32,000 nucleotides of DNA from Candidatus Hermodarchaeota archaeon (GTDB lineage: Archaea > Asgardarchaeota > Heimdallarchaeia > Hodarchaeales > Hodarchaeaceae), in NCBI GenBank assembly GCA_048886185.1, contig JBHLKY010000017.1, positions 1-32,000 of the forward strand, given 5' to 3'. The position numbers and the translations under genes were made by a program. The notes under the pieces were generated by a model that had not been told where the DNA came from, did no database searches, and worked only from the letters and a program-made list of their open reading frames with translations. Each line of letters opens with the position of its first letter. Position 1 is the first letter of the stretch. Shown here one piece after another: positions 23,866-31,859 of the stretch.

Positions 23866-24840
23866 TCAAAATAAAGTTTTATTTACTAGGGAACGATGAT
23901 TTGAACTCGCTAAATAAATTGAGGAGATGATCAATAAACTTCCCAAGACACTAATAACTGAGAGACTCTCGGATAGAAGCAAATTAGCTGTTAATAACCC
24001 AACTACTATGTTTAATAAAAGGATAACATTTAGCTCGGTTGCTTTAATGGATTTACTAGCGTAAATGTATAGAATGAAGGGTAAGATTGTACAGAAGATC
24101 GCTAAATAAATCACTGTTATCCATGCTTCTATTGTTAATGACTCAATACTTGGTGATTGATCTAGAATAAACATCATAAATCCCACAATCAGTACGGAAT
24201 AAAAACTTGAAGATGTAAATACCGCTGATGAATTATTCATCTCTCTAATACGTTCTTGTGTTGCTTTCTTATTCAGAATACTAGAAATTACTCCATAAGC
24301 ACCCCAAACAAGACCTGATAAAAGAACAAGGAATGTACTAATAAGAAAATCGATTGTGTCATTTGGAGCTAATTGAGTTGAGAAACTCCAAGAAACAACC
24401 AAGACTCCAAATATTCCTCCTGTAACTGCTAACTTTAGCCTTAGTGTAATTTTAGTACCCTGAAATAATGATGAGAGAAATGGTGTCGAAATTAGATATG
24501 TACTAGCCATTAATGTAGCTATTGCAGCTGTTGTACCTGATTGACCAATAAATTGTAGTATGTAAGCTAAACCATTTATCAATCCTAGAATTATGATAAA
24601 TTTTTTCTTTAAAAGTGTGAAAATGTCATTTCTTGGTGTTGAAAATATCAATAATGGAGTAAGTAACAGTAAGCTTACTAAAAAGCGTAAAAGAAGGTAT
24701 CCAAGTGGAGGTAGAGGAGGAGAAAGTATTGACAGGCCAATCTTAACAACTGTAAACGGTGTACCCCATAAAACTGCTGCGAGAATTCCTGCAATATAAG
24801 CAGAAGAACGATTGTCCATTAATACACGTCTTTTTAGCAC
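23866..24840 (-). CDS. EamA/DMT-family transporter
   Basis: About 10 TM in two repeats: LWGT.F...K, LLLRF, LAIFCTILPF.LY..A.K.I.AT. Confidence 0.9.
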   Translation of the reverse strand: MLKRRVLMDNRSSAYIAGILAAVLWGTPFTVVKIGLSILSPPLPPLGYLLLRFLVSLLLLTPLLIFSTPRNDIFTLLKKKFIIILGLINGLAYILQFIGQSGTTAAIATLMASTYLISTPFLSSLFQGTKITLRLKLAVTGGIFGVLVVSWSFSTQLAPNDTIDFLISTFLVLLSGLVWGAYGVISSILNKKATQERIREMNNSSAVFTSSSFYSVLIVGFMMFILDQSPSIESLTIEAWITVIYLAIFCTILPFILYIYASKSIKATELNVILLLNIVVGLLTANLLLSESLSVISVLGSLLIISSIYLASSNHRSLVNKTLF

Positions 24841-27902: not shown

Positions 27903-28601
27903 ATGACAGATTACACAACCAATTTAATAGATTGTGCTCTCACTCTAGGAGCTACTCTCGTAGGTGTTGCGGATTTATCACAATTAGAATCTCTAGAAAC
28001 ACATCCTCAAGATCTATTAAACGATTTTAAATTCGCTATTTCAATAGCTATTTCATTACCAACAAATGTTTTTAATCTAATATCAAATGAAAATCCAGGA
28101 GAACTCTATGCTCATTATTATATAACAGGGAATACATTTCTTGATCAGTTAACCTTCCGTCTTTCAGAACGAATTATTCTATATGGATATAAGGCTCTTG
28201 CGATACCAGCTTCCTTAAGCTTGGGTGAACACGAACTTTTGTCAAATATATCGCATAAAGCAATAGCTAGAAATGCAGGACTTGGATGGATCGGTAAAAA
28301 TTTGCTTTTAATAAACCCAAAACACGGCCCACGTATACGGCTTGCTACAGTTTTATCAGACATTCCATTAACTCCTGGAAAACCATTAAGAAATCAAAAT
28401 TGTGGAAATTGTACGAAATGTATTGATTCTTGCCCAATTAAAGCATTAAAACCATTTGATTTCAAAGAATATCCTCTTGAAAGAGAAAAAGCATTCGATG
28501 CAAAAAGATGTCAGACTCGTTTAAAGAAAAATAGAAAACTCACTAATATTGATGTTTCAATCTGTGGTATATGCATCAAAGTATGTCCGGTAGGAAAGTA
28601 A
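27903..28601 (+). CDS. QueG/reductive-dehalogenase-like 2x[4Fe-4S] (probably cobalamin) protein
   Basis: GATLVGVADL, SHKAIARNAGLGWIGKNLLLINPKHGPRIRLATVLSD, CGNCTKCIDSCP, C...CGICIKVCP. Confidence 0.85.
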   Translation: MTDYTTNLIDCALTLGATLVGVADLSQLESLETHPQDLLNDFKFAISIAISLPTNVFNLISNENPGELYAHYYITGNTFLDQLTFRLSERIILYGYKALAIPASLSLGEHELLSNISHKAIARNAGLGWIGKNLLLINPKHGPRIRLATVLSDIPLTPGKPLRNQNCGNCTKCIDSCPIKALKPFDFKEYPLEREKAFDAKRCQTRLKKNRKLTNIDVSICGICIKVCPVGK

Positions 28602-28817: not shown

Positions 28818-29765
28818 TTGGAAGATTTATCAAAAAAACGTATTCCTATAGCTATAGTAGGATTAGAAAATGCTGGGAAGACAACACTAGCCAATAGATT
28901 ACAAACTGGAAAGTTTATCCCTACCACAACTCCAACAAAAGGATTAGATATAGAAACAGTTCAGATTAAAGAAAATTTTTTCCAGCTTTTTGACTTAGGA
29001 GGACACGTATCTTTTCGGGAGATGTTCTGGCAAACCTATGTGAAATTGTCTCAAGGAATCATTTTTGTCATTGATTCAACTGATATAAAGAGAATTGATC
29101 AAACAAGCGAATGGCTTTGGAAATGTCTTGAGTGGAATTCAACAGCTCCAATTTTAATTTTGGCTAATAAGGCAGATTTGGCTCATATCGAATTAAATGA
29201 GCTACTAAATAATCTAAAACTTGATCAGCTACCACAAAAGAGCCCAGAACGTTCATTTCAGATCTATGAGGTGTCTATGAAGGAAGGTACAAATTTAGAT
29301 GAAGCATTAGGTTGGTTTTTTCAAAAATTAATCCCAATCCTTCAAAAAAAGAAAGTAAAATTAATAGGGATTTATTTGTATCTTCCTACAGGGATTCCAA
29401 TCGCATCACATCGATTCACATCTGAATCAGAGGAATTGGATGAAGCTACAGTCCCTGGATTTTTATATGCTCTTGATCAATTTGCTTCTGGGGTTATTGG
29501 CCCAAGTGACGGATTAAATTCGATTTCTACAGGACAAGGAAGTATTCTTATGGTTAAGAGAGAAGGAGTGATGTGTGCCATTGTAACAGATAAAGAGTCT
29601 GATCCCATTACCTCACGCATTATTGCTGAATCTTTTTTAACTTATGTAGAAACAACATTTTCACAGAGTATCTCATTACTAGTAAAAGAAGGAAAAGTGA
29701 GTTTTCCAAAGAATCTTATTCTTGACTTTTTAACAAGAGAATTTGCTCAAAATATAATTTTTTAG
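28818..29765 (+). CDS. Arf/Sar-family small GTPase fused to a C-terminal longin-like domain
   Basis: GLENAGKT (G1), PTKG (G2), FDLGGH (G3), NKAD (G4), VSMK (G5). C-terminal IGIYLYLPTGIPIA...VPGFLYALDQFASGVI. AGGAG RBS upstream. Confidence 0.9.
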   Translation: MEDLSKKRIPIAIVGLENAGKTTLANRLQTGKFIPTTTPTKGLDIETVQIKENFFQLFDLGGHVSFREMFWQTYVKLSQGIIFVIDSTDIKRIDQTSEWLWKCLEWNSTAPILILANKADLAHIELNELLNNLKLDQLPQKSPERSFQIYEVSMKEGTNLDEALGWFFQKLIPILQKKKVKLIGIYLYLPTGIPIASHRFTSESEELDEATVPGFLYALDQFASGVIGPSDGLNSISTGQGSILMVKREGVMCAIVTDKESDPITSRIIAESFLTYVETTFSQSISLLVKEGKVSFPKNLILDFLTREFAQNIIF

Positions 29766-29778
29766 CTTTGAAGGAGAA

Positions 29779-30048
29779 TTAACAACTACTTTGGGTTGCC
29801 TTTAATCTTAAGAATTTTCGAAGCTTAGTCTTTAATACTCCACCCATACAGCCACATCCTAATGGATGCGTAAGAATTGCATCTGTTGGACATTGTAAGG
29901 TGCAAGCACCACATTCTATGCATTCAGCTTCAACCATAATCTGAGCTTTTTTATTCTCATCAAGAATTATGATTTGGTGGGGACAGACATTTACACACCA
30001 CTCACATCCGATACATTTTTCAATGAATATTTGTGCTGTCAATTTCAC
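29779..30048 (-). CDS. hgcB: HgcB-like 2x[4Fe-4S] ferredoxin
   Basis: CIGCEWCVNVCPH and CIECGACTLQCP (the HgcB C(M/I)ECGA signature), extra GCGC and a terminal Cys. Starts 12 bp downstream of the hgcA-like gene. The symbol means hgcB-like. Confidence 0.8.
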   Translation of the reverse strand: MKLTAQIFIEKCIGCEWCVNVCPHQIIILDENKKAQIMVEAECIECGACTLQCPTDAILTHPLGCGCMGGVLKTKLRKFLRLKATQSSC

Positions 30049-30060
30049 TTTCCTCTAAAA

Positions 30061-31722
30061 TTATAATAACATGTTAATTGCCGAACTCACCACTGGCAGT
30101 AGTAAGGCAATCACCGCAAGAACTAACGCAGGGATTGAGAACAATACGAGGTCACTTTCCACATCAAGATGATTGGTGAATGGAGTACTACCTGCAAAAT
30201 CCAAAACGACAAACATACTTACAAGTAATACCAAAGCTATCCAAAAAAGAACTGTACCAATATTATTTCCTTGATTAATGACATAGATAAAAACCAAAAC
30301 TGCGTTTATTCCGCCTAAAAGAATTCCTTTCTTGAAAAACGACCTTACTGGATTCAAAATAGGATAAATCCATGCAAATAACATAGATACAGTACAACCG
30401 ATAATTGTCATCTGGATCATAACATTAAACCAAAATAAAGCACCAATAATTCTTAAATATCCCAGGAAACCTGTTAAGAAGCATAAAGGAAGAAAAACGA
30501 CGATTAGTATGAAAAAAGTATGTTGTATCCCCATTAAGGTCCTATAGGAAAAATCAAACTTCACTTTTCCTTGATTTTGTGTTTTATTACCGTCCCTGAT
30601 AAAATCATCTATAGAATCAATATAAACTGGACCGAATTTCGGTTTCCATCCAAAATCTTTGAGTTTCTGGTGATCAACACCTGTTGCAGAGAGTTGGGGG
30701 AGTATCAAATTTCTATGATTTACTACTAACTCTGCATTAAACAGACGTAATGCATCAATAACTTGAGAATGGCTAAAATGTCCACCCCCAGCAGCACACC
30801 AGACATTAATGCCTGCAGAATCAATAACTAACAAGTAACAATCAATTTTTTGCTTGATTAGAGAGGAATAAACAGAATGGAGCGTCCAATAATAATTACC
30901 AGTAACAAGAAAAGGTGATGTTTGTTTGGGTGTTCCTACTTTATAAAGTCCAGGTGGGACTTGTTTGCGTGTTAACAATCCATTTAAAATACACCAAGCA
31001 ACCTTTATTCGACTAACTCGGCCCAGAACAGAGTTTATTGGAGTAAAACTCACCCTCTTGGAATCAAGAGTCTCTTTCAATCTACATTGATAAAATTGGA
31101 CTGATTTCTTTAAACCCTTGTACAAGAGTTCGCATGAATAATAATCACTTAAAAGAACCTCAAAATTTCTGATTGGGGTTGTTGTTGCACTACTTCTTAA
31201 TAACATTATCTGGGAATTAATGGCCTGTTTCATTGAATATACAAATCGCTTAAATAATGAAGTGGGGATGGTTTCAGCTGCGATAAGCAAGCTTCCTGTT
31301 GTTTTTAGCAACTGACTGGTCTGTTTTATGAATAGTTCTTGTTGAAGGGGACTAAATTCCGAAAGAACAAATGTTGAAACTATAAAGTCAAACGGTCCTA
31401 GATTTTTCAGGTTATCAAATATTTGAAAATCGATAAAACTTCCTTGTATGAAATTAATGCTAACTTGTTCCTTTTCAGCAGATTTACGAGCATGATTAAT
31501 CATTTCTACTGAAATGTCCACAGCTACTACATCAAGGTCTTGTTCTGCTAATTGGATGGCTAGCTGGCCTGTGCCACACCCAATCTCTAAAATTCGGCCA
31601 ACCTTCCCGACTTTTTTTCTGATTATTTCATAAATCGAAGATGATTCAGGAAAAAGCTTATGAAACTCCTCATCATATTTATCAGGTTCCTTTTCTAGGA
31701 TTTTCATGTAAATAAGACTCAT
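30061..31722 (-). CDS. hgcA: Fusion of a class I SAM-dependent methyltransferase with an HgcA-like corrinoid domain and TM domain
   Basis: N-terminal ILEIGCGTG, VVAVDIS.EM, FDFIVSTF. Middle PPGLYKVG.P...SPFLVTGNY, LLVIDSAGINVWCAAGGG, LILPQLSATGV, FGPVY. About 5 C-terminal TM helices with DFAGSTPFT. The symbol means hgcA-like; activity is not established. Confidence 0.88.
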   Translation of the reverse strand: MSLIYMKILEKEPDKYDEEFHKLFPESSSIYEIIRKKVGKVGRILEIGCGTGQLAIQLAEQDLDVVAVDISVEMINHARKSAEKEQVSINFIQGSFIDFQIFDNLKNLGPFDFIVSTFVLSEFSPLQQELFIKQTSQLLKTTGSLLIAAETIPTSLFKRFVYSMKQAINSQIMLLRSSATTTPIRNFEVLLSDYYSCELLYKGLKKSVQFYQCRLKETLDSKRVSFTPINSVLGRVSRIKVAWCILNGLLTRKQVPPGLYKVGTPKQTSPFLVTGNYYWTLHSVYSSLIKQKIDCYLLVIDSAGINVWCAAGGGHFSHSQVIDALRLFNAELVVNHRNLILPQLSATGVDHQKLKDFGWKPKFGPVYIDSIDDFIRDGNKTQNQGKVKFDFSYRTLMGIQHTFFILIVVFLPLCFLTGFLGYLRIIGALFWFNVMIQMTIIGCTVSMLFAWIYPILNPVRSFFKKGILLGGINAVLVFIYVINQGNNIGTVLFWIALVLLVSMFVVLDFAGSTPFTNHLDVESDLVLFSIPALVLAVIALLLPVVSSAINMLL

Positions 31723-31859
31723 TGTTGATCAAAACCCGTAATAGGGAAATTTAGTTTCATCTTATATATCTCTGGATTGTGGTGCAGCACAATATTTCCG
31801 AACATTGATATGAGATAATGGATTCAATACATTTGATTAACTTTTGGAGTTAACAGCGA

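Follow-up and report, generated by a model that had tools for sequence, protein, structure and literature searches.

An S-adenosylmethionine methyltransferase fused to an HgcA-like corrinoid protein and paired with an HgcB-type ferredoxin in an Asgard archaeon: a candidate membrane methyl relay

The stretch of DNA analysed here (the window, 32,000 nucleotides (nt) of contig JBHLKY010000017.1 from a Candidatus Hermodarchaeota archaeon, GCA_048886185.1) carries a gene in which a CpaM-like S-adenosylmethionine (SAM)-dependent methyltransferase is joined to an HgcA-like corrinoid domain and a domain of five transmembrane (TM) helices, followed by a gene for an HgcB-type ferredoxin. The parts are obligately linked, their catalytic residues are conserved, and the corrinoid protein belongs to a distinct, non-canonical HgcA lineage. 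With a probability of roughly 0.6, the two genes encode a membrane-anchored three-component methyl relay of the CpaM/HgcA-like/HgcB-like type, in which a methyl group passes from SAM to a Co(I) corrinoid and from there to an acceptor; the direction of methyl flow, the binding of the corrinoid and the nature of the acceptor are those that we infer. In such a relay the N-terminal CpaM-like domain would bind SAM and methylate the Co(I) corrinoid on the adjacent HgcA-like domain, where Cys309 of the cap helix would ligate the corrinoid from below ("Cys-on") and thereby favour methyl transfer to a soft electrophile. The ferredoxin would dock on the corrinoid and TM domains and reduce Co(II) back to Co(I). 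With the Cys pair after its second cluster and its C-terminal Cys it could also present the acceptor, for which a metal(loid) bound to thiols at the face of the membrane is the likeliest candidate. This kind of acceptor is favoured because of the ferredoxin cysteines and the arsenic (ars) gene context of a sister clade, while methylation of mercury is possible but disfavoured because of the phylogeny, the altered cap-helix motif and the negative results with organisms that carry fused HgcAB. The relay bears on the native function of HgcAB, the maker of methylmercury, and on the route by which the methyl group arrives from SAM, experimentally shown in 2024 to be the methyl donor of canonical HgcAB (PMC11588087).

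An earlier note on this DNA, drawn up from the letters alone, had described the two reading frames, and its account proved exact. The larger frame, of 553 amino acids (aa), lies at 30061-31722 (-) and the smaller, of 89 aa, at 29779-30048 (-), with a gap of 12 nt. The motifs it named are likewise found in the translations, namely EIGCGTG (aa 46-52), VDIS (68-71), LVTGNY (271-276), GINVWCAAGG (304-313) and LILPQL (340-345) in the fused protein and the HgcB signature CIECGAC (aa 43-49) in the ferredoxin. From the N-terminus, all on the (-) strand, the fused protein consists of a class I SAM-methyltransferase domain (aa 1-215; 31078-31722), an interdomain linker (aa 216-252; 30967-31077), a corrinoid-binding domain (aa 253-378; 30589-30966) that includes the cap helix NVWCAAGG (aa 306-313; 30784-30807) with C309 as the putative lower axial Co ligand, and a TM domain (30088-30552) with helices at aa 391-422, 428-456, 462-483, 488-512 and 518-545. 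The intergenic spacer (30049-30060 (-)) reads TAA-tttta-GAGG-aaa-GTG, placing a Shine-Dalgarno-like GAGG motif ahead of the GTG start of the ferredoxin gene, and the two genes therefore form one operon. Since the genes on either side lie on the opposite strand, a convergent Arf-family GTPase gene downstream and divergent open reading frames (ORFs) upstream, the unit is a self-contained two-gene operon.

The architecture read from the sequence was upheld by profile searches and structure prediction. In the fused protein Pfam recognises Methyltransf_25 (aa 44-143, 1e-17) together with the corrinoid domain CdhD/PF03599 (aa 254-366, 1.4e-15), and in the 89-aa protein a dicluster ferredoxin. An AlphaFold2 model built on an alignment of 102 sequences is compact and confident (pLDDT 93.7, pTM 0.89) and shows a Rossmann domain with seven strands, the corrinoid-binding domain and, between residues 391 and 545, exactly five long TM helices, in agreement with the hydropathy profile; the linker is modelled at pLDDT 83-95. 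In the PDB, Foldseek ranked the deposited HgcAB model 9a0b first, at 32% identity across 333 columns, and small SAM-methyltransferases next. Across the 102 fused homologues the motif I glycines G48, G50 and G52 and the cap-helix residues N306, W308, C309 and A311 are invariant, and D69 is at least 90% conserved. The Lys of the canonical cap helix is replaced by Gly in the protein of the window.

Family assignment was made against the curated NCBIfam cut-offs, and both proteins fall below every cut-off compared. The N-terminal 192 aa reach 140.5 bits (model positions 1-192 of 216) with CpaM (NF043040, cut-off 180), the "corrinoid protein-associated methyltransferase", which leads the next-best family (at most 51 bits) by about 90 bits; the corresponding domain of another methyltransferase-fused member (P0124) scores 211 bits and passes. 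For the C-terminal 300 aa, the HgcAB-like fusion model (NF043039, cut-off 285) gives 208.9 bits, rising to 262.4 bits if the fused gene and the ferredoxin are read through, HgcA (NF040863, cut-off 275) gives 189.2 bits over the full length of the model (aa 253-547), and the gamma subunit of acetyl-CoA decarbonylase/synthase (ACDS; NF003195, cut-off 306) gives 72.6 bits at model positions 323-446 only. The ferredoxin scores 69.2 bits with HgcB (NF040864, cut-off 99), its best-scoring family.

Trees give the position of the protein in the HgcA family. An exhaustive, profile-free search with the HgcA-like part yielded 948 representatives, which architecture and cap-helix motif separate into clean groups: those of about 330-380 aa that carry NVWCAAGKG but lack a ferredoxin part are true HgcA (405-414 bits with the HgcA model in the two tested), and HgcA::ferredoxin fusions reach 341-401 bits with the HgcAB-like model. 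Two trees were rooted with Asgard CdhE, a quick mixture-model tree of 136 rows and a careful LG+G4 tree of 63 rows, and in both all HgcA-like proteins split from CdhE with full support (100 or 100/100). Canonical HgcA forms one clade, at SH-aLRT 96 in the quick tree and at 100/97 in the careful one, where all bootstrap trees (100%) recover it, and the protein of the window lies outside it, in its own Heimdall-type methyltransferase-fused clade (100/99). Further supported groups are a Loki-type methyltransferase-fused clade (96/95), a lineage (99/91) in which an Anaerolineae-type fused group joins the HgcA::ferredoxin fusions, and that of a second copy in the genome of the window (100/100). Several gains or losses of the methyltransferase fusion are needed on the tree. 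The window's clade groups with the HgcA::ferredoxin fusions at SH-aLRT 96 in the 136-row tree; this grouping was not recovered in the 63-row tree and is not claimed, and as the backbone among the HgcA lineages lacks resolution in these trees, no ancestral state is claimed either. The earlier note's description of the corrinoid domain as HgcA-type thus holds in the sense of HgcA-like and separate from CdhE, and fails in the sense of canonical HgcA (189 versus 275 bits, no motif Lys, position outside the clade). An identity as CdhE, the grouping which the note had named as fatal to its own idea, was considered and rejected in view of the partial 72.6-bit match to ACDS gamma and the split with support of 100.

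The fusion itself is well founded. A word-indexed search found 697 relatives, nearly all of about 550 aa with a methyltransferase domain and PF03599, in metagenome-assembled genomes of Heimdall-, Hod-, Loki-, Odin- and Hermod-archaea and in Anaerolineales, which the databases annotate only as "methyltransferase domain-containing protein". A match is present in 95 of 201 sampled genomes of the phylum, and in more than 40 of these the full-length fusion (28-51% identity) stands in one stop-free open frame. The search for the same fusion in other genomes that the earlier note had called for was thus amply answered, and the stop or frameshift between the methyltransferase and corrinoid parts that it had warned of was not seen. 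That the fusion is an artefact of assembly or annotation, with two genes joined chimerically or a stop between them overlooked, has a negligible probability: contigs from other samples and studies are fragmentary and leave 30913-31017 nearly bare, with one 33-nt piece over it, but they show no indel, stop or joint where they do cover the gene, the AlphaFold2 model is confident and compact through the linker, and it is the conservation across independent Asgard genomes, bacteria and hundreds of database proteins, rather than contig mapping, that excludes a chimera.

The same three parts occur in four arrangements. Among 45 fused loci, 41 show the arrangement of the window, a methyltransferase::HgcA fusion followed by a separate ferredoxin gene (median gap 31 nt). 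Elsewhere a methyltransferase gene of 217-223 aa lies directly upstream of an HgcA::ferredoxin fusion, overlapping the next start by 8 nt at one locus (P0137) and ending 17 nt upstream at another (P0210), and this adjacent split arrangement is found in at least 12 Asgard genomes. One protein (P0162) is a CpaM::HgcA::ferredoxin triple fusion with 264 bits for CpaM and 360 bits for the HgcAB-like model. The window's own genome carries both fused and unfused flavours, as its second copy (G000:C4:110012-113638, L010) comprises a major facilitator superfamily transporter (426 aa) and three separate parts, a CpaM-like methyltransferase of 217 aa, an HgcA-like protein of 327 aa with the cap NVWCSAAGG, and a plain ferredoxin of 72 aa that lacks the HgcB cysteines. 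Three separate genes, pairwise fusions of two types and a triple fusion together constitute Rosetta-stone evidence that the parts work together, and the CpaM association spans all non-canonical HgcA lineages sampled; at the canonical hgcAB loci, no methyltransferase neighbour was present in three out of three. Further triple fusions of 596-601 aa with the cap NVWCAACGG were seen in one Asgard family (L086-L088; genomes G052, G011 and G122).

The ferredoxin, of the 2x[4Fe-4S] kind, has the features by which HgcB is recognised (PMC7305189). These are two CxxCxxCxxxCP motifs, the essential and strictly conserved Cys73, which follows the second motif at a distance of about 12 residues, and one or more cysteines at the C-terminus; Cys73 and Cys94/95 are required for Hg methylation (PMC7305189). 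In the ferredoxin of the window the cluster motifs span C12-C22/P23 and C43-C53/P54, C65 and C67 lie in a GCGC sequence and C89 is terminal; C67 and C89 do not vary when the protein is aligned with two canonical HgcB sequences, and the post-cluster and tail cysteines align with Cys73 and Cys94/95. The HgcB-like partner claimed by the earlier note can therefore be accepted on its hallmark cysteines and on HgcB being its best family, even if the score remains under the cut-off. All 41 partner ferredoxins of fused genes have GC(G/R)C after the second cluster, and their last 6 residues include one or more Cys, two or more in 38 cases, whereas nine of the ten HgcA::ferredoxin or triple fusions examined end just past the second cluster without such cysteines. 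A complex of the fused protein with the ferredoxin was predicted with an ipSAE of 0.75 against 0.00 for the best control (run agreement at least 73%, partner pLDDT at least 74), a mark that was attained in 58 of 80 cases among solved complexes and in 2 of 110 among mismatched pairs. The predicted interface brings the cap helix (308-313), a loop (343-352) and the turn between TM4 and TM5 against ferredoxin residues 61-74, in agreement with the description of the published HgcAB model.

The coupling of SAM-methyltransferase, corrinoid protein and ferredoxin proposed in the earlier note is thus supported by the permutations of fusion and fission, the translational coupling, the conserved SAM and cap-helix residues and the passing complex prediction, while Hg, which it had offered as a candidate acceptor, cannot be assumed as substrate. 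Several points weigh against the relay or its metal(loid) acceptor. For this lineage the reading rests on comparative and modelled evidence, and the complex prediction may partly reflect the computational HgcAB model 9a0b deposited in the PDB. Canonical HgcAB uses SAM without a methyltransferase domain (PMC11588087), which leaves the need for CpaM unexplained, and organisms with an HgcA::ferredoxin fusion did not methylate Hg (PMC5893877). The window's ferredoxin has a single C-terminal Cys only, and ars or other metal genes are absent from the surroundings of all eight loci in the window's subclade. In addition, CobS and CbiC were not found in the 96%-complete genome, from which it follows that the corrinoid must be scavenged; at least nine proteins with B12-binding domains are encoded, and judged by gene content the organism looks like a scavenger and user of corrinoids without synthesis of its own.

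A tentative proposal, for which we would give clearly less than even odds, extends the relay to the group as a whole: the methyltransferase::HgcA-like proteins with Cys-tailed HgcB of Asgard archaea and Anaerolineae may be SAM-driven, cobalamin-dependent methylases of As, Hg or another soft metal(loid). If so, such methylases would be invisible to current hgcA screens, and they would supply a mechanistic link for the 2024 finding on the methyl donor and point to the native function of the HgcA family. If the CpaM association is ancestral, canonical HgcAB would be a derived form that has lost its dedicated SAM-loading domain.

Of the more specific readings, a cobalamin-dependent module for methylation or detoxification of arsenic or another metalloid, as an alternative to ArsM, is unlikely for the window, although it draws on a suggestive genomic context in the sister clade, the Loki-type one. 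In this clade, whose cap reads NVWCAARG[ND], 18 of 45 loci have a neighbouring gene, mostly divergent, for an ArsR/SmtB regulator (77.9 bits against a cut-off of 55), 10 of 45 have one for an ACR3-type arsenite pump (281.0 bits against a cut-off of 282.8) immediately upstream in the same orientation, and ArsB occurs in one (L050). The context parallels the published arsenic links of canonical hgcAB, which in Pseudodesulfovibrio mercurii ND132 is under ArsR-like control responsive to As and S-adenosylhomocysteine (SAH; bioRxiv 10.1101/2022.10.17.512643) and to which ars genes are known to adjoin (PMC7438021), and Cys-rich ferredoxin tails would suit the binding of As(III). On the other hand, ars genes are absent from all eight loci of the window's subclade, that of the window among them, ArsR/SmtB regulators respond to a range of ligands, SAH included, and no HgcA relative is known to carry out arsenic chemistry. 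Direct binding of a metalloid by the methyltransferase domain in the manner of ArsM was considered and rejected, being unlikely because no Cys is conserved in aa 1-215 across the 102 fused homologues. Beside the ars genes, the Loki-type loci (L058-L076) show two conserved small ORFs (about 106 and 120 aa) after the HgcB-like gene, in 11 loci each and without a match in Pfam or NCBIfam, and a 417-aa protein encoded divergently upstream in 10 loci; these may be further components of the ArsR/ACR3-linked operon.

It is likewise improbable that the acceptor is organic, be it a lipid, a cofactor, a natural-product intermediate or a protein thiol, and that the system transfers methyl groups at the membrane in a general way, unconnected with metals. 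In the window's subclade the flanks are neither conserved nor metal-related, the presence of several paralogues per genome suggests several substrates, and some members lie in biosynthetic-looking clusters. In one of these, a metagenome contig (L044:1-6125, the locus of P0210), the genes around CpaM and HgcA::ferredoxin encode two radical SAM enzymes, one B12-binding and the other MiaB-like, and an AMP-binding enzyme, a setting that differs from the ars surroundings of the Loki-type clade. Against an organic acceptor stand the metal-handling Cys features of HgcB, kept in 41 of 41 partner ferredoxins of methyltransferase::HgcA proteins and different in this respect from HgcA::ferredoxin fusions, and the argument that Cys-on corrinoid chemistry favours transfer to metals (PMC7305189).

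That the unit is a functional mercury methylase, an equivalent of HgcAB with a built-in SAM-loading domain that is missed by screens requiring NVWCAAGK, is distinctly improbable. The features found essential by mutagenesis are kept, with C309 as equivalent of HgcA Cys93, the TM domain, an equivalent of HgcB Cys73 and a C-terminal Cys (PMC7305189), the HgcA model is matched over its full length and SAM is the donor of HgcAB (PMC11588087). However, the protein lies outside the canonical clade, it and its partner are below the HgcA and HgcB cut-offs, the Lys of the motif is absent, no mer or other Hg-related genes lie nearby, and the only non-canonical relatives tested, the fused HgcAB of P. furiosus and M. 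methylutens, produced no methylmercury (PMC5893877).

Very unlikely, finally, is a role of the methyltransferase and ferredoxin in repair only, in which SAM would re-prime a corrinoid oxidised to Co(II) and the routine methyl donor would be another. The precedent is methionine synthase (MetH), whose fused SAM-binding domain performs such reductive repair with a low-potential electron donor and which uses SAM for repair only. By analogy, the reactivation module of MetH and CmuA-type fusions may be compared with the window's protein in that a methyl-donor-binding domain stands in cis with a corrinoid carrier, and the restoration of Co(I) by a low-potential electron donor would be a MetH-like trait, though the folds and families are unrelated. 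A repair unit would explain how canonical HgcAB manages without a dedicated methyltransferase, yet SAM is the stoichiometric donor of canonical HgcAB (PMC11588087) and no second methyltransferase is conserved at the locus. Moreover, neither ACDS gamma nor CFeSP (corrinoid iron-sulfur protein) was found in the window's genome or in any of six sampled genomes of the same class, compared with 34 of 61 genomes of the phylum; no methyl branch of the Wood-Ljungdahl pathway is evident, and a methyl source in that pathway is therefore unlikely here.

Set beside known systems, the candidate relay is closest to CpaM with the HgcAB-like fusion protein ("fused HgcAB"; Podar 2015; Gilmour 2018; Lin 2023), with which it shares the three parts, their obligate linkage and the lack of the cap-helix Lys. 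It differs from fused HgcAB in topology, as the window has methyltransferase::HgcA with a free ferredoxin and fused HgcAB has a free methyltransferase with HgcA::ferredoxin, in belonging to its own clade (100/99) below all three cut-offs, and in a ferredoxin that keeps the post-cluster and C-terminal cysteines of HgcB, which nine of ten HgcA::ferredoxin fusions examined do not. With canonical HgcA and HgcB of P. mercurii ND132 it has in common a corrinoid domain with a Cys cap, five TM helices, an adjacent HgcB-type ferredoxin and the predicted docking; SAM as methyl source has been shown for canonical HgcAB and is implied for the window's protein by the fused methyltransferase. Canonical HgcA, unlike the window's protein, has no methyltransferase domain or neighbour, carries NVWCA(A/G)GK, stands in a clade of its own and has been shown to methylate Hg, its screening motif being N(V/I)WCA(A/G)GK (PMC5893877). 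The large subunit of CFeSP and ACDS gamma (AcsC, CdhE; 4DJD, 2H9A) share the corrinoid domain (aa 255-376 versus 320-441, E about 1e-7), but the window's domain is far closer to the HgcA and HgcAB-like models than to the C-terminal domain of CFeSP/CdhE, and the N-terminal [4Fe-4S] and TIM-barrel parts of CFeSP are not common to the two. CFeSP is moreover soluble, has a cap helix without a Cys ligand and receives its methyl group from methyl-tetrahydrofolate or methyl-tetrahydromethanopterin via a TIM-barrel methyltransferase. ArsM shares the class I SAM-methyltransferase fold, and some relatives of the window's gene lie in ars operons; unlike ArsM, however, the methyltransferase domain has no conserved As-binding cysteines and scores 26-29 bits with ArsM models against cut-offs of 240-575, and ArsM needs no corrinoid.

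The association of methyltransferase and corrinoid protein is not new as such, since the partnership is already catalogued in NCBIfam as CpaM (NF043040) and the "HgcAB-like fusion protein" (NF043039), and a "fused HgcAB" clade with Asgard members is present in the literature (PMC10083202). In the literature searched, no paper was found that names CpaM or describes a methyltransferase::HgcA fusion, nor any that treats proteins of this fusion topology as a clade of their own or reports that they consistently pair with a Cys-tailed HgcB-type ferredoxin or that the sister clade is embedded in ars operons, which is not proof of absence. New here are the split, pairwise fused and triply fused states of the parts, the unfused copy in the same genome, the HgcB cysteines in 41 of 41 partner ferredoxins and the Loki-type ars operons. 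A natural methyltransferase::HgcA-like fusion in all permutations is strong genomic evidence for family-wide loading of methyl from SAM onto cobalt, and the single polypeptide makes it convenient to test both SAM loading and what HgcA proteins natively do. A testable lead to metalloids as native substrates comes from the ferredoxin's HgcB-type cysteines together with the sister clade's ArsR/ACR3 surroundings. If any of these proteins methylate Hg or As, surveys based on NVWCAAGK undercount the methylators in sediments, where Asgard archaea are common; if none do, the proteins define the features that separate Hg methylases from look-alikes.

Some features of the locus and its surroundings are of lesser consequence. 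M6 of the fused protein is invariant across 102 homologues and the database copy has 548 aa, so that, as far as the sequence tells, the true start of the gene may be the ATG at 31707, giving 548 aa. About 40 nt upstream of the first ATG, ATATATAA (31762-31769 (-)) is a possible archaeal TATA box, a low-confidence call made from the letters alone. In five loci of the same genus (L048, L051-L054) a 3-methyladenine DNA glycosylase I (PF03352, 4.6e-83) is encoded about 110 nt upstream on the same strand and a conserved 181-aa ORF lies downstream; the window has neither. The divergent upstream ORFs (L017:860-1846 and 1906-2439) have no match in Pfam or NCBIfam. Beyond them, 1.7 kb upstream of the operon, lies a gene for a YdjM-family membrane protein (PF04307; G000:C17:33436-34440 (-), L017:2436-3440), a family of which six Loki-type loci have a member no more than about 1.5 kb away from the fused gene, and an EamA transporter (23866-24840), which recurs near some relatives, is encoded on the other side. 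Neither belongs to the operon here, and an association of either with the module is unproven; that of YdjM may be chance or a weak link. A 232-aa protein (27903-28601 (+)) ends in a Fer4_16 double-cluster domain, and its N-terminal 165 aa match no family. The gene convergent with the operon (28818-29765 (+)) encodes a small GTPase of the Arf family (PF00025, 6.5e-37) that is extended by about 140 aa at its C-terminus and is a typical "eukaryotic signature" protein of Asgard archaea. The assignment of the DNA to Asgard archaea in the earlier note holds, here with the Heimdall group as the more exact place, in view of this neighbour and of a genome placed in the same genus (G119), one protein of which is identical to P0015 of "Candidatus Heimdallarchaeota archaeon B3_Heim", and DNA of the window is present in sediment metagenomes.

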